Shown here in pieces: positions 27,092 through 36,211 of a DNA stretch of 64,000 bases (the first letter of the stretch is position 1; each line of letters begins with the position of its first letter). Origin of the DNA: Candidatus Hecatella orcuttiae (GTDB lineage Archaea; Thermoproteota; Bathyarchaeia; Hecatellales; Hecatellaceae); contig MTLY02000001.1 in NCBI GenBank assembly GCA_002011035.2, forward strand, positions 224,001 through 288,000. The letters are read 5' to 3'. The notes beneath the pieces were generated by a model, which made no database searches, was not told the DNA's origin, and worked only from the letters and a program-made list of their open reading frames with translations. A program made the position numbers and the translations under genes.

Positions 27092-27682
27092 CTAGGAATC
27101 CGGAAAGTAGTGGTTCGGTGTTTCCAGAAAATTTTGGATAAGCCGCTTACCATGAGCGGTTAAGATGCTTTCAGGGTGAAATTGAATTCCCTCCACCGGC
27201 CGGCTTTTATGCCGGACCCCCATGATGGTTCCGTCCTCCGCCTTGGCGGAAACCTCCAGACAGGAAGGCAGGCAAGTGGGCACAGCGGCTAGGGAATGGT
27301 AGCGAGTAGCCGGGAAAGGATTAGGCAGCCCGTGGAACACACCTTTTCCGTCGTGGTAGACTTGGGAGGTTTTCCCGTGCAGCGGCCCGGACTCGGCTCT
27401 GTCCACTTTCCCCCCGAAGGCTTCCACGATGGCTTGGTGGCCTAGGCATACGCCGAGGATGGGGATGGAGGCGAGTTTCCTTATCACAGCCATGGTGTTG
27501 CCTGTGCTCTTCCGGGGATGCCCGGGGCCGGGGGATATTATGATTCTCTGAGGCCTCATTTCAGCTGCCTCCTGCGCGGTCAGGATGTTATCCGCTACTA
27601 CCACCTTGCAGCCTTGGCTGGCCACGTAGTCGACGAGAATGTAGACGAAGGAGTCCCGGTTGTTGATGAAGAGAACCTTCAC
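27092..27682 (-). CDS. trpG: Anthranilate synthase component II
   Basis: ISPGPG, LGVCLGHQ, RYHSL, QFHPES. Confidence 0.93.
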   Translation of the reverse strand: MKVLFINNRDSFVYILVDYVASQGCKVVVADNILTAQEAAEMRPQRIIISPGPGHPRKSTGNTMAVIRKLASIPILGVCLGHQAIVEAFGGKVDRAESGPLHGKTSQVYHDGKGVFHGLPNPFPATRYHSLAAVPTCLPSCLEVSAKAEDGTIMGVRHKSRPVEGIQFHPESILTAHGKRLIQNFLETPNHYFPDS

Positions 27683-29169
27683 GCTACGTTCACCTTCGCC
27701 TCCGCCATGCCTACGGCCTTCACTAGGCTTCGCATTTTGTTCTCCGTTTCAATCCACTCCAGCCTCGGCTGGGAGTCGGCTACCACCCCGGCTCCAGCTT
27801 GAACGGTGGCCGTGGAGTTCAAGAGCTGGATGGTTCGGATGGTGATAGCCCAGTCCATATCCCCGTTGAAGGCCATGTAGCCGATGGCTCCCGCGTAGGG
27901 GCCTCGGGGCTCCTTCTCCAGCTCTTCGATGACCTCCATGGCTCTCAGCTTGGGGGCGCCGGTTACCGTTCCTGCGGGGAAGAGGCATTTTAACACGTCG
28001 AAGGAGTTCATTCCTCTCCGAAGTCTTCCCTCCACGGTGGTGACTAAGTGCATCACGTGTTTGAACCTCTTCACTGTCATGAAGCCTCTCACTTGGACGG
28101 AGCCCGGCTCGGAAACCTTTGAAACGTCGTTCCTGGCCAGATCCACCAGCATGACGTGTTCAGCTCTTTCTTTGCTGTCTGTCTTCAGCTCCCTGAGCAT
28201 CCGCCCCTCATCCACCTTGTTCCAGCCTCTCCGCCTTGTCCCCGCGATAGGGACGGTGGTTATCTTTTCACGGTTTAGGCTTACTAGGGCTTCAGGGCTG
28301 CTTCCCACAAACCTGAGGCTTCCGAAGTTCAGGTAGAACATGTAGGGGGAGGGATTCAGCCTCCTCAAAGCCTCGTAGATCGCCAAGTCTCCAGCCTCAG
28401 TTTTCCGACCTACCTTCCGGGAGACCACAACTTGGAAGATGTCTCCGCTCCAAATGTATTCCTTGCACTGTTCAACCATGTGAGAGAATTCCTCCTGCCC
28501 CACGTTGGACTTGAAGTCTTCGACGGAAATGTCCCCGCTGACATCATCCTTTCTCCCTCCCTCAGCCCTGTAGCTTTTCAAGGCTTTTCCCAGATCTTGG
28601 GAAACATCGCCTGCGCCTCCCACCCCGTTGTCCACCTGCAGCAAGATTTCCCGAGCGTGGTCGTAGATGAGGACCGTGGTATGCATCCCCAACATGACCT
28701 CAGGGGTTTCCGCTCGACGTTTGAAGCCCACCCACGGGGCTACCGCGTCGTAGGCCACATAGCCTAGGTAGCCGCCGAAGAAAACCTGCCTCCTGAAGAA
28801 GGGAGGCCTCCGCAGTGCGGTTTCAGGAAAATATTCTTCAACCCTGTCCAAGGCCAAGATTCTGTTCTCAACCCTATCCTCCACAGCTCGGTGGGCTGCG
28901 CTGGGCATTTTCCGTTGAGGCTGGAGCCTGCGGAGGATCTGCTCCCCTCTCTCCGTTAGAATCTCCTCAACCCTCGGCCTGTCTTTTTTGACGGTTAGAA
29001 TGTAATCGGGGTTGAAGCAGAGAAAAGAGTAGAGGGGTTTGTGTTCGCTGAGGGATTCCAGAAGGAAAGAGAAGCGAGGTTCCAGCCTCTCCGATAGGTG
29101 TTTGAAGAGGGAGAAGACGTTGCACCGTCCTCCCACCCTTGTAACCTTCGGCTGAATGCTGGTAGGCAT
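27679..29169 (-). CDS. trpE: Anthranilate synthase component I
   Basis: LLES, NPSPYM, GSSPE, EHVMLVDLARND, PAGTVTGAPK. Confidence 0.93.
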   Translation of the reverse strand: MPTSIQPKVTRVGGRCNVFSLFKHLSERLEPRFSFLLESLSEHKPLYSFLCFNPDYILTVKKDRPRVEEILTERGEQILRRLQPQRKMPSAAHRAVEDRVENRILALDRVEEYFPETALRRPPFFRRQVFFGGYLGYVAYDAVAPWVGFKRRAETPEVMLGMHTTVLIYDHAREILLQVDNGVGGAGDVSQDLGKALKSYRAEGGRKDDVSGDISVEDFKSNVGQEEFSHMVEQCKEYIWSGDIFQVVVSRKVGRKTEAGDLAIYEALRRLNPSPYMFYLNFGSLRFVGSSPEALVSLNREKITTVPIAGTRRRGWNKVDEGRMLRELKTDSKERAEHVMLVDLARNDVSKVSEPGSVQVRGFMTVKRFKHVMHLVTTVEGRLRRGMNSFDVLKCLFPAGTVTGAPKLRAMEVIEELEKEPRGPYAGAIGYMAFNGDMDWAITIRTIQLLNSTATVQAGAGVVADSQPRLEWIETENKMRSLVKAVGMAEAKVNVA

Positions 29170-29185
29170 TTCGAGCCGCCCCCTT

Positions 29186-30001
29186 TCACGCTTTTTTAGC
29201 CGTCGCTGCTTTGAGGGTGTGGACGTAGGCGGAAACCTTCTCCAAGGCTTGAGCAGGGTTTGAAGCTGAGCTGGTGTAGAGGTCGATGAGGGCGGAGCCC
29301 ACGATGGCTCCGTCTGCTCCCGCCGCTATCACTTCCCGGACGTGCGGGGGCTTGGAGATTCCGAAGCCCACGGCTACGGGAATCCTCGCCTCCACGTGTT
29401 TGGCTATTCTTGAAATCGTCTTCTTCGTCAACGCGGAGAGGCTTTCCCTCGCCCCCGTCACCCCTAAGAGGGACACTAAGTAAAGGAAGCCCTCTGCCGC
29501 CTTCACGATTTTTTCAAGCCTCCGCTCCGTAGTGGTCGGTGCCACCAAGAAGATCAGGTTGACTCCCGCGTCCTTTCCAGCCTTGGAAACCGGCTCCGCC
29601 TCCTCCACGGGAAGGTCGGGGACGACCACCCCGTCCAACCCTGCCTCGGCGAAATCCCTGAAAAATCCAGCGACCCCCCGGCGGAGGACGGGGTTGTAGT
29701 AGCTCAGAAGGACCAAAGGCGTCTTGACCTTATCCCTGAGCTTGCGGACAGCCTCTAAGGCCCTGTGGGTGTTCATTCCGGCTTTAAGGGCCCTCTGATA
29801 GCTGGCTTGGATGGTCGGCCCGTCGGCCACGGGGTCTGAGAAAGGGAGTCCCAGCTCCAAGATGTCAGCTCCGCTTTCAGCCAGCCTCCGGGCTAACTGG
29901 ACGGAGCGTCTGAGGGAGGGGTCCCCGAGGGTTGTGAAGGTGATGAGGGCGCCTTCCTTTCTCTTTTTAAGCTGGTTGAAGGTTTCCTGTATTCTGCTCA
30001 T
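29186..30001 (-). CDS. trpA: Tryptophan synthase alpha chain
   Basis: [27 protein letters not shown]. Confidence 0.96.
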
Positions 30002-31212
30002 TTTCTGTCCTCCATGAATTTCTGAACCACTCCTAGGTCCTTGTCCCCCCTCCCCGAAAGGTTGAGCACTACGATGCTGTCTGGGGGAAGCCGCCGGGAT
30101 ATCTTCGCCAAGTGGGCTAGGGCGTGGCAGGGTTCTAGGGCTGGGAGGATGCCCTCCAGCTTGGCGAGCATGTGGAAGGCTTCCACAGCTTCCGCGTCCG
30201 TGGCCGTGTAGACTTTCAGCCTTCCTGTTTCTTGGAGAAAAGCCAGCTCCGGGCCTACGCCGGGATAGTCCAAGCCGGCGCTGATGCTGTGGGATGTTTC
30301 AATCTGCCCGTATTCGTCTTGGAGGATGCGGGTGTAGGCTCCGTGGAGAACCCCGAGGCTTCCAGCGGCCAAGGAAGCTGAATGCCTTCCGGTCCTGAGT
30401 CCCTGGCCTCCAGCCTCCACTCCGTGCAGCTGGACGGAAGGGTCTTCCAAGAAGTCGTAGAAGGCTCCTAGGGCGTTGCTGCCGCCTCCGATGCAGGCAA
30501 CTAGGAGGCTGGGCAGTCTTCCTTCTTTTTCCAAGACTTGCTGCCTTATTTCCTTCCCTATGACCCTCTGAAACTCGCGGACGAGGAGAGGGTAGGGATG
30601 AGGCCCCACCACCGACCCCACCACGTAGTGGGTGTCACCCACGTGGGCTATCCAGTCTCGGAAAGCTTCGTTGATGGCGTCCTTCAAAGTTCGACTCCCA
30701 GACTTCACCGGGTGAACTTCCGCTCCCAGCAGTTCCATCCTGTAGACGTTATGCCTCTGCCTTTCCACGTCCTCCTCCCCCATGTACACCTCGGTTTTCA
30801 AACCCAACACCGCCCCGGCCATGGCGGTGGCTAAGCCATGCTGCCCGGCTCCTGTCTCCGCTATAAGCCGCTTTTTCCCCATGCGGAGGGCTAGGAGGGC
30901 CTGGCCTAGCGTGTTATTGAGCTTATGAGCTCCTCCGTGGGTTAGGTCTTCCCGCTTCAGGTAAACCTTGCAGCCCAGCCGCCAGCTTAAACGCTGAGCG
31001 TAGTAGAGGGGCGTAGGCCTGCCGGCGTAGTCCCTCAGATACCTCCCCAGCTCCCCTTGGAATCCGGGATCTCGGTGGTGCCGGAGGAAGGCTTCATGCA
31101 GTTCCTCCAAGGCCGGCATCAAAATCTCGGGGGCGAAGATGCCTCCGTACCTGCCGAACTTGCCCTTTTCGTCGGGATACCTCCCATAATAGGAGAGGCT
31201 GGTTTTTTTCAC
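29998..31212 (-). CDS. trpB: Tryptophan synthase beta chain (TrpB1 type)
   Basis: [40 protein letters not shown]. Confidence 0.96.
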
Positions 31213-31877
31213 CCTGTTTCAACTCCTGCGGTTTTGGCTTTTCTTATGAAAGCCTGAATCTGGGAGTAGTCCTTGACCCCCGGGGAGGATTCAACCCCTG
31301 AGGACACGTCCACGGCGTAGGGTTGGACGGCGGCTATGGCTTCCTGGACGTTGCCGGCGGTGAGCCCCCCGGCGAGGATGAAGGGCTTGGGGCGGACAGC
31401 CTCCCCGACCATCCGGGCTACCTTCCAGCTGACGGGGCAGCCGGTTCCTCCGTAGCCTTCGGCTGTGGTGGAGTCGAAGAGAACCGCGCTCGCCACCTCG
31501 GCCAGTTTTTTCGCCTTCTCCTTCAGCTCCTCTTCCTTTTGGGAAGGATTCCAAGCTAAAACTCCGATGACCTGAGACTTGAGGGTGGAGGCTACGTGCT
31601 TCACGGCTGAAGGCTGGGTTATTCCGTGAAGCTGAACCGCGGAAGGGTTCAGCCGTTCCGTGGCCCTCACTATGGCGTCGGGGGAGGTGGTTGCTGAAAC
31701 CAAGACTGAGGAGACAAAGGGGGGAACCGCTGAGAGGATTCTTCCCGCCTCTTCCAAAGACAGGTTTCTCGGGGATCGGGGAGAATAGACCACCACCCCT
31801 ACAGCGTCGGCTCCGCTGTCGACAGAGGCTTGAAGGTCTTCTCTGCTTTTCAAACCGCAAATTTTAACCCTGACCAC
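31209..31877 (-). CDS. trpF: Phosphoribosylanthranilate isomerase
   Basis: VKICG, VQLHG, GGTG, LAGGL, DVSSGVE. Confidence 0.94.
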
Positions 31878-31880
31878 GGT

Positions 31881-32651
31881 TCAGGCCTCCACCAGCTCCC
31901 TCACCTTACTGGCCACGTTTTCAGCAGCCATGATGGCTGAGCCTACCAAGACAGCATCAGCGCCCCACCTGCGAACAGCCCGGACATCCTCCGCTGTGCG
32001 GAGGCCGCTTTCACTCACCACAACCGCCCCGGGGCACGCTACTCGAACCTCCGGCAGCAGCCTCTCCGTCACCTTCAGGTCGACTTGGAAAGTGGTCAGG
32101 TTTCGGTTGTTCACCCCCACCAGCTTAGGGTGGAGGGAAGCAGTCTTCTCCAAGTCCTTCGGGTCATGGATTTCCACCAAGGGCTCCAGTCCGAGGGAGA
32201 GGACGAGGCGGTGGAACTCCTCCAGCCTGGGACATAAGGACGCCACTAGGAGGACGGAGTCAGCCCCTGCCTCGAAAGCATGGTAAATCTGCCGTTCGTC
32301 TAGGATGAAGTCCTTCATCAGAATGGGAACCTGAGGGAAGGCCGCCTTCACCCTCCTGAGGTTTTCCATGCTTCCCCCGAAGAAATCCGGCTCGGTGAGG
32401 ACGCTGAGCCCCACGGCTCCGCCCTGGAGCATTTCCCCCGCCACCTCTTCCACGGAACCTATCTTCCGCAGAGGACCCTGCATCGGGGAGGCTGGCTTGA
32501 CCTCGGCTATCACCGGCACCTTGGAGCAGCCTCGGATGGCTTCGGTCAGGCTCACCCTCGGCCGGCGGCTTCCTCCGCTCGGCTGGTAGGCTCGGTAGTC
32601 TCTGTCGACTCTTCGCCTTACGGATTCGAGGATTTCTTCCATCCTAATCAT
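31881..32651 (-). CDS. trpC: Indole-3-glycerol phosphate synthase
   Basis: IAEVKPASP, SVLTE, KDFI, GVNNRNL, SESG. Confidence 0.94.
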   Translation of the reverse strand: MIRMEEILESVRRRVDRDYRAYQPSGGSRRPRVSLTEAIRGCSKVPVIAEVKPASPMQGPLRKIGSVEEVAGEMLQGGAVGLSVLTEPDFFGGSMENLRRVKAAFPQVPILMKDFILDERQIYHAFEAGADSVLLVASLCPRLEEFHRLVLSLGLEPLVEIHDPKDLEKTASLHPKLVGVNNRNLTTFQVDLKVTERLLPEVRVACPGAVVVSESGLRTAEDVRAVRRWGADAVLVGSAIMAAENVASKVRELVEA

Positions 32652-33696
32652 GCTCCAAGGCCTCCAGCTTCCCGGGGTCTCCCCCAGACTCTTTTATGAG
32701 AAGTCTAAGTTTTTCCAAGGCCTTTCCTGAGGACAAGGCTTCCCAGGCGAGCTCGAGGCCTTCTTCCACCCTTTCCACCTTGGAGGCGGCTAGGAGGGCG
32801 TAGGCGGCGTTGAGGGCAGTCATTTCGGCTTTGGCGTTTCTCACCCCCCCGAGGACCTCCAAACTTTCCCGAAGGTTTTGCTTCAGCTCTCCTCCCCTCA
32901 GTTCCTCGACGGTTTTCCCTTCCTCCAACCCAAACTGGCGGGGGTGAACGTCGTAGCTTTTGACGGTTCCATGGTTTAACTCTGCAACGTGGGTCGGCCC
33001 TACGAGGGATACCTCGTCGACTCCTATCAGGCCGTGGACGACGAAGGCTTTCTCCAAGCCCAGCTTCTCTAGGACGGCGGCCAGTTTTTCCACTAGGTCG
33101 AGGCTGTAGACGCCTAGGACCTGAGCCTCCACCGGCGCGGGGTTAGTGAGGGGGCCGAGGATGTTGAAGACGGTTCTGATCTTTATCTCCCTCCGAGGCA
33201 AGAGAGCATGCTTCATAGCTTGGTGAAATTTGGGGGCGAACATGAAGCCCACGCCCACCCTCTCCACGCAGCGTTCCACGGTTTTAGGCTCCGCTTGGAT
33301 GTTGACCCCGAACCCCTCCAAGAGGTCGGCGCTGCCGCAGCGGCTTGAGACAGCCCGGTTGCCATGTTTGGCCACGTATCCCCCGGCTGCGGCTACCGTC
33401 AGGGCTGAGAGGGTGCTGACGTTGAAGGTCTTGACAGGGCTGCCTCCTGTGCCGCAGGTGTCGATGAGGCAACCGGGAACTTTGGGATGGATCTTCACGG
33501 AGAAGCTTCTCATCACCCCGGCGAAGGCGGCTATCTCCTCCACGGTTTCCCCCTTCATCCTCAGGGCCGTCAGGAAGGCGGCTATCTGGGGCGGGGAAGC
33601 CTCGCCGCGGAGAATGGCCCCCATGGCCTCCTCCGCCTCCCCCGGAGTCAGGCTCCTTCCCTCCACCACCTTCACTAGGGCGTCGGCTAGGCTCAC
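32644..33696 (-). CDS. trpD: Anthranilate phosphoribosyltransferase
   Basis: DTCGTGG, NVST, KHGNR, FNILGPL. Confidence 0.95.
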   Translation of the reverse strand: MSLADALVKVVEGRSLTPGEAEEAMGAILRGEASPPQIAAFLTALRMKGETVEEIAAFAGVMRSFSVKIHPKVPGCLIDTCGTGGSPVKTFNVSTLSALTVAAAGGYVAKHGNRAVSSRCGSADLLEGFGVNIQAEPKTVERCVERVGVGFMFAPKFHQAMKHALLPRREIKIRTVFNILGPLTNPAPVEAQVLGVYSLDLVEKLAAVLEKLGLEKAFVVHGLIGVDEVSLVGPTHVAELNHGTVKSYDVHPRQFGLEEGKTVEELRGGELKQNLRESLEVLGGVRNAKAEMTALNAAYALLAASKVERVEEGLELAWEALSSGKALEKLRLLIKESGGDPGKLEALEHD

Positions 33697-33814
33697 CGGC
33701 CGCAGCCTCCAACCTCTAAGGTTGTTGCGAAGAAAAATCTGGTAGGTAAGGAAAGAAAGAGCCGCAAGAGGAGGGGGGAGGGTAATCTAAAACTGCAGGA
33801 GGCTTTGGGAAGGT

Positions 33815-33838
33815 TTATCTCCAGTCCAGCTGGTGCAC
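33815..33838 (-). CDS. Putative trp leader peptide MHQLDWR (an alternative 22-aa Trp-containing uORF lies at 33787-33855)
   Basis: GTG CAC CAG CTG GAC TGG AGA TAA, preceded by GGTGGGGAG, in the leader of trpD. Confidence 0.45.
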   Translation of the reverse strand: MHQLDWR

Positions 33839-33880
33839 TCGCTCCCCACCGTCAAAACTACTGTATCAGAGAACAATTCT

Positions 33881-33888
33881 TATTTAAG
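33881..33888 (-). promoter_or_regulatory. TATA box of the trp operon
   Basis: CTTAAATA on the minus strand; implies a TSS near 33859 and a leader of about 160 nt. Confidence 0.6.
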
Positions 33889-33931
33889 GCTTATGCGTAG
33901 GCTTCTGTTTCACGCTCTCTTTTCCGCGGTT

Positions 33932-35032
33932 TTAGAGCCTTTCTGTCACCAGCCGCTCTAGAGCGTTGATGAGAGCTTGGTTTTCCTCAGGGGTTCGGAC
34001 GCAGAACCTGAGGCAGTCTCCCAGCCCCGAGGCCTCGTCGAAGCTCCGGGGGACTATTCCCTGCTGGAGCAGCCTCCTGTAGGCTTCCGGAGCTGGAGGA
34101 GTCTTAAACCGGATGAGGATGAAGTTGGCTTGGGAAGGATAGACTTGAAGGCCTGGGATGACTTGGAGGGCTTTGATGAGCCGCTCCCTCTCCTCCGTCA
34201 CCCACTGGACGTTTCTTCGGAGGAGTTCCAAGTTCTCCAACGCCAGCCCAGCGAGGGCTAGGGAGATAACACTCAGGCTGTTGGGCGGCCTTACCTTGTT
34301 GAGCAGCCGGACGGTTTTCTCGTGGGCGACCATGTAGCCCACCCGAGCTCCAGCGAGGGAGAAGGCTTTAGAAAACGTCCTGATGACTATTAGGTTCTCG
34401 TAGGCGTCCACCAAGTCCACCACCGTCCGGCCGCAGAACTCGGCGTAGGACTCGTCCACCACCAGCGGGCAGCCGGACTCCTCCAAAACCTTCATGATGT
34501 CGGAGCGGTCTGTCAGGTTTCCAGTGGGGTTGTTGGGGCTGCAGATGAAAACCAGCCTAGTCTGGCGGCTGCAGGCCTCCAGCAAGGCGTCCACGTCCTC
34601 CGAGAAGTCTTCCCTCCGAGGAGCTAGAACCAGTCTTCCTCCCATCACCTCGACAATAGTGCTGTAGAAAGAGTAGGTGGGCTTTGAAGCTAAAGCCTCG
34701 GTGCCTGGGTCGATGAAAGTTTTAGCCACGATGTCCAAGGCCTCATCCGCACCCGTGGTCACGGTTAACTGTTCCACCCTCCGCCCCAGATATTTGGCGA
34801 GGCCTTCTCGAAGCTGGGTGTAAGACGTGTCCGGGTAATCGTTCACCCCAAGCCCGGGCAGCAACTCAGCCAGCTTCGACAAAAGCTCCTTGGGGGGGCT
34901 GGGCATGGTGTTGGTGTCAAACCGGAGCACTTGCTCCTTTCTTAGGCCCAGTTTTTTTGAAAGCTCGTCGGTGGAAGGCTCCCACTGGTAGGGTCTGAGG
35001 GTCTTCACAGCTTCCCTTATCTTCATGCTCAT
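33932..35032 (-). CDS. hisC: Histidinol-phosphate aminotransferase
   Basis: CSPNNPTG, DESY, RTFSKAFSLAGARVGY, SQANF. Confidence 0.9.
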   Translation of the reverse strand: MSMKIREAVKTLRPYQWEPSTDELSKKLGLRKEQVLRFDTNTMPSPPKELLSKLAELLPGLGVNDYPDTSYTQLREGLAKYLGRRVEQLTVTTGADEALDIVAKTFIDPGTEALASKPTYSFYSTIVEVMGGRLVLAPRREDFSEDVDALLEACSRQTRLVFICSPNNPTGNLTDRSDIMKVLEESGCPLVVDESYAEFCGRTVVDLVDAYENLIVIRTFSKAFSLAGARVGYMVAHEKTVRLLNKVRPPNSLSVISLALAGLALENLELLRRNVQWVTEERERLIKALQVIPGLQVYPSQANFILIRFKTPPAPEAYRRLLQQGIVPRSFDEASGLGDCLRFCVRTPEENQALINALERLVTERL

Positions 35033-35200
35033 ACTCTAAGCCTGCCTCCAGTGTTAGATGAAAGAAAACTGGTAGAAAAACCCTTACATGACCCCCCAGT
35101 TGGCAGCCGGCTTCGGCGCTAGATTTATGTCCTTCCAAAACCTTCTCCCTCTAACCTCAGGGCTGAAGACTTCTCCCTGAAAACAAAGGACCTGAAAAAA

Positions 35201-36211
35201 TTGAGGACCCTTGTGCCTCCGAGCCATGTCTACCTCAGAGACAACATCGCGGCCAAGGGGAACCCTTTCGGAGCCCCTGCCAAGGCTAGGGCTGAGTGGG
35301 CTCAGGGGTTGAATCTGCCTTCCAATGGAGAATGCTTCTTTTTTGCAGGCTGCGGCTACCAGTTCATGGACCGCGCGGAGACATGGTTGAAAGCTGTCCG
35401 AGGCTTAGAGAAAAGAGGCCTGCCTGTCGAACGGGTCTTGGGTGTGTCCAAAACTCTCAAAAAGGTAGGTGTGGACTTGGCCGGAGTCTACGGGAAACTA
35501 GCCGGCTCGGGGAAGACTACCGCCTACATCAACGCCCTCATCAGCGCCGTCAATGTCCTGAGAAAACTGGGAGTAAACCCCGCTTACCTCTACGATAAAG
35601 AACCTTGCTGCGGCTCACCCTTGTACTCTTCAGGCTTTGAGGAGGACTTTGCTGAAAACGCCCGCCGAACCTACCGGCTGTTGAAGTCCTTGGGGGTGAG
35701 GAAGCTGATAAGCCTTGTGCCCGCCTGCACTCACACGCTGCGAAACCTCTACCCCAGATACGTGGACGGCTTCGACCTAGAGGTCAGGCACTTCTTGGAA
35801 GAGGTTGCCGGCAGGCTGAAAAATGCCGGCATCCAGCCGGCCTTGAAAGAAGAGATGGAGCTGACTTTCCACGACCCTTGCCAGCTGGCTAGGTTCCTAG
35901 GCATCACCCAAGAGCCCAGAGAAATCTTAAGCAGAGTGAGAAATCTGAGGCTCAGGGAAGTTACGTCCACAAGCAGAGAGCGAACCACCTGCTGCGGCGG
36001 CGGGGGAGGCGTGGAGTTCACCTTCCCCGAATTGAGCGGAATGCTGGCTGAGGAGAGGATGAAAGAGCTCCTCGAAACAAAGGCCTCCGTCATCGCCACC
36101 CACTGCCCCGCCTGCCTACTACAGCTCAGGGAAGCCCGGGAGAGGATGAGGGCTCAAGTCCAAGTTTTAGACATAGCCCAAGTTTTGGACAAAGCCTTGC
36201 GGGGAGGTTAA
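35201..36211 (+). CDS. CCG-domain Fe-S protein (GlpC/HdrD/LutA-like)
   Basis: FAGC, EPCCG, HDPCQL, CCGGGG, HCPAC. Confidence 0.85.
   Translation: MRTLVPPSHVYLRDNIAAKGNPFGAPAKARAEWAQGLNLPSNGECFFFAGCGYQFMDRAETWLKAVRGLEKRGLPVERVLGVSKTLKKVGVDLAGVYGKLAGSGKTTAYINALISAVNVLRKLGVNPAYLYDKEPCCGSPLYSSGFEEDFAENARRTYRLLKSLGVRKLISLVPACTHTLRNLYPRYVDGFDLEVRHFLEEVAGRLKNAGIQPALKEEMELTFHDPCQLARFLGITQEPREILSRVRNLRLREVTSTSRERTTCCGGGGGVEFTFPELSGMLAEERMKELLETKASVIATHCPACLLQLREARERMRAQVQVLDIAQVLDKALRGG

Follow-up and report, generated by a model that had tools for sequence, protein, structure and literature searches.

In E. coli-type trpL attenuation, a short leader open reading frame (ORF) contains Trp codons, and the progress of the ribosome along this ORF reports the supply of charged tRNA-Trp. 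In the case of TnaC, free Trp is what is sensed, at the stop codon, and the operon that is induced through a block of Rho is catabolic. In hungry-codon leftward frameshifting and in dnaX, an empty A site promotes slippage of the P-site tRNA, and a hairpin lies downstream at classical -1 sites. To our knowledge, sensing of charged tRNA by a leader ORF has so far been described in bacteria only. Here, we analyzed the leader of trpD, the first gene of the Trp biosynthesis operon of the archaeon Candidatus Hecatella orcuttiae (class Bathyarchaeia), on the minus strand of a 64,000-nt stretch of contig MTLY02000001.1 (positions 224,001 to 288,000; hereafter the window). The genome that contains the window (G000; 97% complete) was compared with related genomes (G001, G003, etc.), and families of the class are designated f1, f4, f10, f14, and f24.

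The trpD leader resembles trpL in that charged tRNA-Trp would be reported by an ORF with a Trp codon ahead of Trp biosynthesis genes. It differs from trpL in that its Trp codon stands alone instead of in tandem, in that alternative hairpins and a terminator made of a hairpin and a U run are both missing, in that its proposed output is a change of frame followed by coupling, and in that leader cassettes of the same type also precede trpS; because of the lack of alternative hairpins, the G000 leader is not a classical attenuator. As in the tna leader, a ribosome near the end of a short Trp-containing ORF would control genes that lie past an unstructured, pyrimidine-rich spacer, but the logic must be the reverse in G000, where the operon is biosynthetic and the signal would be charged tRNA. 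Members of family f14 share with classical -1 sites a hairpin located 7-10 nt downstream of the shift codon; unlike at those sites, there is no X_XXY_YYZ heptamer, and G000 has no hairpin.

Among recoding systems, the +1 autoregulatory shift of prfB depends on a slow A-site codon that lets the P-site tRNA slip, and the rate of the shift reports the supply of the factor (PMC12421855, accessible portion). The slip proposed for G000 differs in being -1 at G_GAC_UGG rather than +1 at CUU_UGA; a sense codon would be sensed, and the shifted frame leads to a start codon instead of a functional protein. Coupling through overlapping stop and start codons, as set out in the available part of PMC12548453, is matched by the overlap of the connector stop with the target start described below, while the upstream ORF, unlike in those cases, mostly lacks a start of its own and would be entered by frameshift. 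Archaeal trp control has been described for Methanothermobacter as repression by TrpY at TRP boxes, and the portion of that source available also indicates that homologs of TrpY and Tar are mostly missing from Crenarchaeota, which may rely on a third mechanism (PMC6737238). TGTACA boxes occur in relatives of G000 but not in the leader studied here; no TGTACA box was found within 33697-33931, and no match to the TrpY family (NF053754) was found in the G000 genome, such that another regulator is needed.

We propose, with a probability of roughly 0.55, that the trpD leader is a translational Trp sensor in which a hungry UGG codon would cause a -1 slip at G_GAC, followed by translation of a connector and coupling into trpD. 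Transcription would start downstream of the TATA box at 33888-33881, and ribosomes would initiate on a 7-codon mini-ORF (33838-33815) that begins with GTG. With an ample supply of charged tRNA-Trp, the UGG (33823-33821) would be read and translation would stop two codons on at UAA, leaving 118 nt of leader untranslated. Under scarcity of charged tRNA-Trp, the ribosome would pause while its P site is occupied by GAC and its A site, over UGG, is empty, the P-site tRNA-Asp would slip one base back (from G_GAC to GGA), and CUG would enter the A site. The ribosome would then read the -1 frame along a stop-free, pyrimidine-rich connector to the TGA at 33695-33693, which lies within GTGA, and termination at the trpD start would hand it to trpD by translational coupling; the translated leader may also shield the transcript from premature termination. 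In the trpB2 version found in relatives, the shifted ribosome would continue straight into the enzyme. The regulatory sign is right for biosynthetic genes and trpS alike. The shift at G_GAC_UGG, the response to Trp, and coupling or relief of polarity as the output are predictions from comparative sequence analysis.

A Trp-codon mini-ORF conserved in front of Trp genes

The mini-ORF on which this proposal centers reads GTG CAC CAG CTG GAC TGG AGA TAA (MHQLDWR; 33815..33838, minus strand), with its Trp codon at 33823-33821 and the proposed slip site G_GAC at 33827-33824. An earlier, sequence-only reading of this leader had interpreted it as attenuator-like and had pointed to conservation of a Trp-codon upstream ORF (uORF) among relatives as the way to check this; such conservation was found, as the mini-ORF is kept in a 92%-identical relative, across three genera within the family, and in three families besides it, in all cases before Trp-related genes. 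The 92%-identical relative is one 1545-nt contig in run X10, for which 37 of the 41 differences of that record are listed. TrpD scans of metagenomes and of the genome collection yielded no relative above 60% identity; contigs from metagenomes reached 60% at most, and the closest TrpD proteins of genome representatives were those of G001 (56%) and G003 (54%). In the 92%-identical relative, none of the listed differences falls at 33802-33850, a 49-nt block that comprises a purine block, the mini-ORF (which is identical), and 13 nt beyond it, and none falls in the TATA region at 33865-33895, while the flanks of the 49-nt block diverge by 11-17%. For comparison, listed differences number approximately 21 in 342 nt (~6%) of trpD and 13 in 77 nt (17%) of the pyrimidine-rich tract, where they are mostly exchanges between C and T.

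This block without listed differences between diverging flanks bears on the simplest alternative, i.e., that the ORFs arose by chance in the long intergenic stretch from hisC to an internal trp promoter and have no regulatory role. Short TGG-containing ORFs are indeed common in random leaders, and the pairwise local alignment of the G000 and G003 leaders (14/16) has a score that was reached by 29 of 500 shuffles and is not significant alone. We nevertheless regard an origin by chance as scarcely credible, given the block itself, the presence of the same mini-ORF before Trp genes in four families, and its uniqueness as an intergenic ORF in the G000 genome; the arrangement of a start, three or four codons, GAY, TGG, NNN, and a stop is found in three mini-ORFs in that whole genome, and MHQLDWR is the sole intergenic one. 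A MAFFT alignment of three leaders did not align the element. A CCTTACCT stretch common to G000 and G003 was dropped as a chance match because it is not kept in the 92%-identical relative.

Both G003 and G001 have the same core downstream of a TATA box, with one codon between UGG and the stop in each (TAA, TAG, and TAA among the three leaders, including that of G000). Across the class, the motif GUG UAU/CAC CAN CNG GAC UGG with an early stop precedes trpD, trpC, trpB2, and trpS in families f1, f4, f10, and f14. A search with the CANCNGGACTGGANNTAR pattern gave 11 matches in 401 class genomes, a number equal to that in the reversed control (11); seven of these 11 matches lie in leaders, namely those of trpD in G000 and G003, the trpC operon in G001, trpB2 in G016 (a TrpB-like target; NCBIfam, 701 bits), trpS in G083 and G071 (Trp-tRNA ligase; NCBIfam, 535 bits), and an ORF of the TIGR04076 family in G155. 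A sequence-only profile built from six leaders, for which G000 was a training sequence (own score 31.1 bits), matched 34 of 151 class genomes and 36 of the 71 genomes of family f14. When 24 new class-wide profile loci were inspected, 12 were leaders and the rest looked like chance matches within genes; the targets of 21 further f14 loci were trpS (13 loci), trpB2 (2 loci), and several small ORFs. The consensus after this profile work is GUG-(UAU/CAC)-CAN-NNG-GAC-UGG, with UGG as codon 6 and the frame-0 stop at +6 to +39 nt after UGG. GAC is preceded by G in all instances, whichever of six codons stands at position 4 (CTG, CAG, CCG, TTG, TCG, or CGG), a count that the search model partly biases; this constant G would allow the slipped tRNA to re-pair on GGA. 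The G000 leader has the motif, a stop two codons after UGG, an open -1 frame, and a Trp-gene target (the trpD operon), and it belongs to a family of leader cassettes of this archaeal class. A conserved 7-codon Trp ORF before trpD, trpC, trpB2, and trpS in four families needs an explanation even if no frameshift takes place.

One such explanation is that the conserved block is a nucleic acid binding site, either an operator (approximately +10 to +50) for a Trp-responsive protein or an RNA element that binds a protein or, via UGG, the anticodon of tRNA-Trp. The sequence between GUGUAUCA and GGACUGGA is invariant even at synonymous positions, across families with approximately 50% identical TrpD, and variable positions fall on second and third codon positions alike, as would suit a binding site; G001 has no start codon in its copy, and a related CAGCTGGAATTTA is found upstream of the separate trpD of G001. 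On the other hand, no conserved secondary structure was detected and no Rfam family matched the leader at E up to 10, the GUG of f14 members is preceded at 7-9 nt by a good Shine-Dalgarno (SD) sequence, and a binding site would explain neither where frame 0 stops nor how the -1 frame is built. There is also no signal of a regulon, as the 10-mer is not enriched genome-wide; a search of G000 for CTGGACTGGA with at most one mismatch gave 108 matches vs 85 in the reversed control. We thus consider a binding site quite improbable as the explanation for the block.

With regard to the other elements of the 5' part of the leader, the TATA-like sequence CTTAAATA at 33888-33881, which the sequence-only reading had noted as a TATA element, is present 185 nt before the trpD GTG (33696) and, read together with upstream bases that resemble a B recognition element, forms a putative promoter at 33881..33895 (minus strand). 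The region closely resembles the TATA region of trpE promoters in class relatives. In the 92%-identical relative, similarity stops exactly at 33895, and 933 other letters follow up to the end of hisC (33895/33939 junction), a break that fits a promoter of the trp genes' own. The purine block GGTGGGGAG (33841..33849, minus strand; within the 49-nt block without listed differences) is a weak SD-like element 5' of the mini-ORF; the description of the mini-ORF as SD-led was therefore too strong, as GGAG lies just 3 nt before GTG and GGUG 8 nt upstream. Two uORFs with a TGG codon each exist where they had been placed, with the correction that they start with GTG and TTG rather than ATG. The second of them, a 22-aa TTG uORF at 33787..33855 (minus strand), is in the +1 frame, i.e., the frame of trpD, and we judged it non-functional as a peptide. 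A role for it as a sensor did not hold up, as AGG replaces its Trp codon in G003 and, in the 92%-identical relative, its tail is altered by L>F and L>P; a C>T change in the same relative creates an ATG in its frame, which leaves some room for this uORF. A +1 shift from the mini-ORF into the trpD frame was rejected because of the TAG at 33789-33787.

A stop-free -1 frame that ends at the target start

Counted from the mini-ORF, the -1 frame is open up to the start of the downstream gene in the 39 related loci that were informative. The first stop after UGG, as determined for 19 loci, lies at +6 to +30 in frame 0 and at +4 to +55 in the +1 frame vs +65 to +1379 in the -1 frame. The connector ORF of G000 (33693..33827, minus strand) is open for 45 codons including the stop, from 33827 to the TGA at 33695-33693; it has no start codon at its 5' end, and its TGA overlaps the trpD GTG as GTGA. 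Thirteen loci in which the -1 frame is not fused to the target were compared in detail. The frame ends in an exact NTGA overlap with the target start in G000, G003, G083, and G155, as UGAUG in G023 and G091, 1-12 nt short of the start in G115, G111, G128, and G001, and 4-23 nt within the gene in G038, G033, and G016; nine of the 13 have no -1-frame start codon upstream of UGG. Depending on the locus, composition-matched shuffles had an open -1 frame with a probability between 0.477 and 0.009. Overlaps of stop and start (GTGA, ATGA, TTGA, or UGAUG) were found in 17 of 30 non-fusion loci. Of the 21 further f14 loci, 11 have the start of an ORF of 80 codons or more exactly 1 nt before the -1 stop and six have it within -11 to +5 nt, while in three the -1 frame runs for more than 1100 nt (two of these are trpB2) and in one it is cut by the end of the contig.

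In other loci the -1 frame is the target itself. In G058, G053, and G122, it is the frame of TrpB2, and two further fusions of this type were found in f14. Four of the five trpB2 fusions have no ATG, GTG, or TTG in the TrpB2 frame from its opening to 60 nt past UGG, and the SD-led start sits in the mini-ORF frame, which leaves these TrpB2 genes with the out-of-frame start of the mini-ORF as their sole start codon. Members of f14 have GGAGG 7-9 nt before GUG, and in members of f14 and f24 a hairpin starts 7-10 nt past UGG (z of -1.7 to -3.1 in four of them); these two features are also weak in f4 and f10 members and may not define the family.

The C/T tract that had been described between the mini-ORF and trpD is present at approximately 33782-33731 (minus strand) and has a pyrimidine fraction of 0.87 in 45 nt, which ties for first place among the 790 upstream regions of at least 100 nt in G000. 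We read it, from its pyrimidine rank and fast evolution, as the body of a stop-free connector. In the 92%-identical relative, the connector shows 14 differences, of which two are synonymous, and its -1 frame is still open; fast change that is mostly between C and T, together with a connector peptide that is not conserved, fits this role. The tract is absent from other family members. As a side observation, the second most pyrimidine-rich upstream region of G000 (C2, approximately 425360-425553) contains a lysine-rich short ORF and a C/T stretch with an eight-T run, followed by a 105-aa ORF, and resembles a gene for a small basic protein with an oligo-T terminator.

The sequence-only reading had assigned a different role to the tract, in which its segments pair with the trpD ribosome-binding site (GGAGG, AGAGG, and CGCAA) and the position of the ribosome on the uORF decides whether the SD sequence is occluded. 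The trpD SD sequence itself (GGAGG at 33706..33710, minus strand, 9 nt 5' of GTG) is good, as the 16S rRNA of G000 ends in ...GGATCACCTCCT, and it is unchanged in the 92%-identical relative. The pentamers are complementary on paper, and two changes in the 92%-identical relative (33764 and 33725) would keep the proposed UUGCG/CGCAA pairing through G-U. The folding ensemble nevertheless did not bear the pairing out. When the leader RNA (33862-33680) was folded and compared with 200 dinucleotide shuffles, its minimum free energy (MFE) was -47.2 kcal/mol (z of +1.83), and 195 of the 200 shuffles folded at least as well. The partition function gave a pairing between tract and trpD SD sequence of 0.002 per nt in the free RNA and of 0.028 with a ribosome mask at UGG, and the accessibility of the SD sequence was 0.33 with and without the mask, equal to that in controls with a shuffled tract. 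The tract instead pairs with the 5' purine block (0.895 per nt in the ensemble), so a stalled ribosome that masks this block would free the tract to close the SD sequence during starvation, which is the wrong sign; in addition, the tract diverges by 17% in the 92%-identical relative and is missing from other family members. We consider SD occlusion very improbable. No conserved RNA structure is shared by the G000 and G003 leaders (z of +1.83 and -0.40, respectively), and an Rfam scan, with T-box included, of 33697-33931 at E up to 10 found no match (five weak matches lie elsewhere in 32500-35500). Judged from the MFE structure and from the lack of a structure shared with G003, the G000 leader has no mutually exclusive antiterminator and terminator hairpins with a U run. 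Taken as a whole, the reading of the leader as one with a Trp-codon ORF stood in that a conserved Trp-codon mini-ORF lies downstream of its own promoter; SD occlusion as the output did not, and the data point to a link through the -1 frame instead.

A further alternative, which the sequence-only reading had raised as its second option, keeps the mini-ORF and does without a frameshift; in this view, stalling at UGG, or release after it, decides whether the untranslated U/C-rich leader is exposed to termination, either by aCPSF1/FttA or by an intrinsic oligo-U mechanism. According to the part of PMC11616081 available, FttA prefers U-rich RNA, terminators are defined by U-rich RNA of 30-36 nt plus U at 23 nt behind the 3' end and by factor-dependent 3' ends, and mutual exclusion of ribosome and FttA is itself a hypothesis. 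The mini-ORF is conserved, the leader is unstructured, G-poor, and contains U runs, and G000 encodes an aCPSF1/FttA ortholog (928 bits; cut-off 580), all of which is compatible with termination control, as are the binding of FttA to U-rich RNA and the proposed competition with ribosomes (PMC11616081, accessible text). The sign of the effect argues in the other direction, as a stalled ribosome covers approximately 15 nt downstream and is uncoupled from RNA polymerase, which would increase termination in starvation. Moreover, the leaders of G001, G003, G016, and G083 have no U-run terminator in common, and termination would explain neither why the -1 frame is open exactly to the target start nor why TrpB2 frames lack a start. 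Termination as the sole output is unlikely in our assessment.

Several observations weigh against the proposed -1 shift, particularly in G000. The G000 leader has neither a good SD sequence 7-9 nt before GUG nor a hairpin 7-10 nt after UGG, i.e., the features seen in f14 and f24; its SD-like element is badly spaced, and the sequence after UGG folds at -0.7 kcal/mol only (z of +0.8). In G001, GCG replaces GTG, and there is no canonical start in the mini-ORF frame. In G003 and some others, the -1 frame has a start codon, so ribosomes could enter it directly there. Slippage from GAC to GGA would retain two of three base pairs, one of them G-U. An open -1 frame was also found in 0.274 of composition-matched shuffles for G000; stop codons are scarce in every frame of the tract, so the openness of G000 alone is weak evidence. 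Trp codons are not depleted in the connectors, although their avoidance had been predicted (15/1317, vs 14 and 16 in the other frames), the connector of the 92%-identical relative gains a Trp codon, and connector variation is without codon periodicity (26/35, 21/35, and 23/35). Finally, nucleotide conservation of the motif exceeds the needs of a 7-residue peptide and would also suit an RNA or DNA binding site.

Two additional features of cassettes in relatives are recorded here. At four f14 loci (L291, L323, L328, and L331), the cassette precedes an ORF of approximately 87-92 aa; the TIGR04076 match stems from G155, the sole locus tested. The G155 ORF is followed by a gene for a 4Fe-4S protein and an aldehyde:ferredoxin-oxidoreductase-like gene, and a prephenate-dehydrogenase-like gene adjoins; the cassette may serve a Trp- or indole-linked pathway of unknown role there. 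In trpS leaders of genus g21 (L298, L302, and L324-L343), a connector block CC(C/T)AGAAA(G/C)CTTCTAAACCG is conserved at the nucleotide level and partly self-complementary, which suggests added RNA structure.

A candidate +1 site at the start of trpE in class relatives

A second type of Trp-codon site was found at trpE in class relatives with the gene order trpEGDCFBA, at loci outside the window (L193-L201, L203-L269, and L128-L163). In these relatives, an SD-led ORF begins ATG RGK DAT NNN NTT TGG (M-[RG]-[DYN]-x-[VILF]-W). All nine relatives that were chosen by TrpD rather than by the motif have this ORF, with the trpE frame at +1 to it and open from there. The trpE-type pattern occurs in 175 of the 401 class genomes, the reversed control being several-fold rarer in a rough tally. 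Seventy-nine loci were examined, 63 of which have trpE downstream, and the +1 offset and the open trpE frame were seen in 63/63; past TTTGG, the median open length of frames 0 and +2 is 12 codons, whereas no locus among the 63 has a +1 frame open for fewer than 234 codons. No canonical start exists in the trpE frame in 26 of them. Among named-record loci picked by TrpD, the motif is present in all seven Bathyarchaeia-titled loci with a trpE 5' end (six strict, one variant), and it was not found in the bacterial or other archaeal ones. At L081 and L163, a TAG in the +1 frame right before TTT_GG pins the shift to NUU_UGG. Production of TrpE in these relatives thus appears, judging from the reading frames, to need a prfB-like +1 frameshift at NUU_UGG; the site copies the prfB geometry given in the available part of PMC12421855, with an SD-like element, 3 nt, and NUUU, followed by GG in place of GA.

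G000 itself carries no site of this type. Its trpE has a late operon position and its own ATG, the ATGRGKDATNNNNTTTGG pattern has no match in the genome, and the trpD leader has GAC rather than NUU before UGG and a +1 frame that stops at the TAG at 33789-33787. At L193, L196-L201, and L288, paired TGTACA-type palindromes lie directly upstream of the TATA box of trpE or trpB2, and G016 has both TGTACA boxes and a divergent gene of the TrpY family (188 bits; cut-off 180); relatives with boxes would combine repressor boxes with a frameshift leader. An ArsR-type regulator divergent from trpE in G015 and G022 was set aside as a candidate, since its G000 homologs are merely 30-31% identical and uninformative.

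Put together, the class may run its Trp regulon on two hungry-UGG frameshift switches, i.e., a +1 switch at NUU_UGG for TrpE and a portable -1 cassette that probably originated within the 5' part of trpB2, with the tract in the window as a connector; the odds of this wider picture we would put at even. A natural hungry sense codon that serves as a sensor for the pathway of its own amino acid was not found in the literature searched. Likewise, neither a trp leader ORF from archaea nor frameshifting in trpE, trpB2, or trpS leaders was found in a search that left most subscription journals uncovered, so a prior report is possible; the accessible portion of the 2016 review by Atkins (PMC5009743) makes no mention of trpE or anthranilate.

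Organization of the locus and biological meaning

The gene upstream of the leader is hisC, which encodes histidinol-phosphate aminotransferase (35032-33932, minus strand; TIGR01141, 321 bits; cut-off 276.55). The gap between hisC and trpD is 235 nt and falls at approximately the 89th percentile of co-directional gaps in the G000 genome. The operon trpD-trpC-trpF-trpB-trpA-trpE-trpG (27092..33696, minus strand), assigned from the ORF list and from aligned orthologs, starts with the trpD GTG at 33696 (TIGR01245, 395 bits), and the view that it is otherwise tightly packed was confirmed, as its genes overlap or sit at most 16 nt apart. G003 also has trpD as its first trp gene. In G001, the order after hisC is trpC-F-B-A-E-G and trpD is located elsewhere, with a hisC ortholog upstream of the trp genes as in G000; between hisC and the trpC leader of G001 (L274, 5465-6661), there are ORFs of 88 and 309 aa, which are ACT-domain-like by eye, the longer one being phosphoserine-phosphatase-like. 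Regarding the 16S rRNA of G000, the match on contig C2 (464353-466521) spans 2169 bases for all 1478 model positions, which makes one or more insertions or introns probable, and a partial second match to small-subunit rRNA is present at C3:4-640.

Regulation of amino acid biosynthesis is unknown in most archaea. If the proposed mechanism is true, archaeal ribosomes would serve as amino acid sensors, and amino acid sensing would occur by recoding rather than by RNA structure or a repressor; it would be the first leader-ORF control of amino acid genes in Archaea. A starvation-driven frameshift at a sense codon would join the short list of autoregulatory recoding events, which includes prfB and antizyme. 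The two switches would also explain why, in hundreds of class genomes, TrpE and TrpB2 will be called too short or not at all by gene callers, and the leader cassette would represent a compact, testable module of approximately 150 nt.

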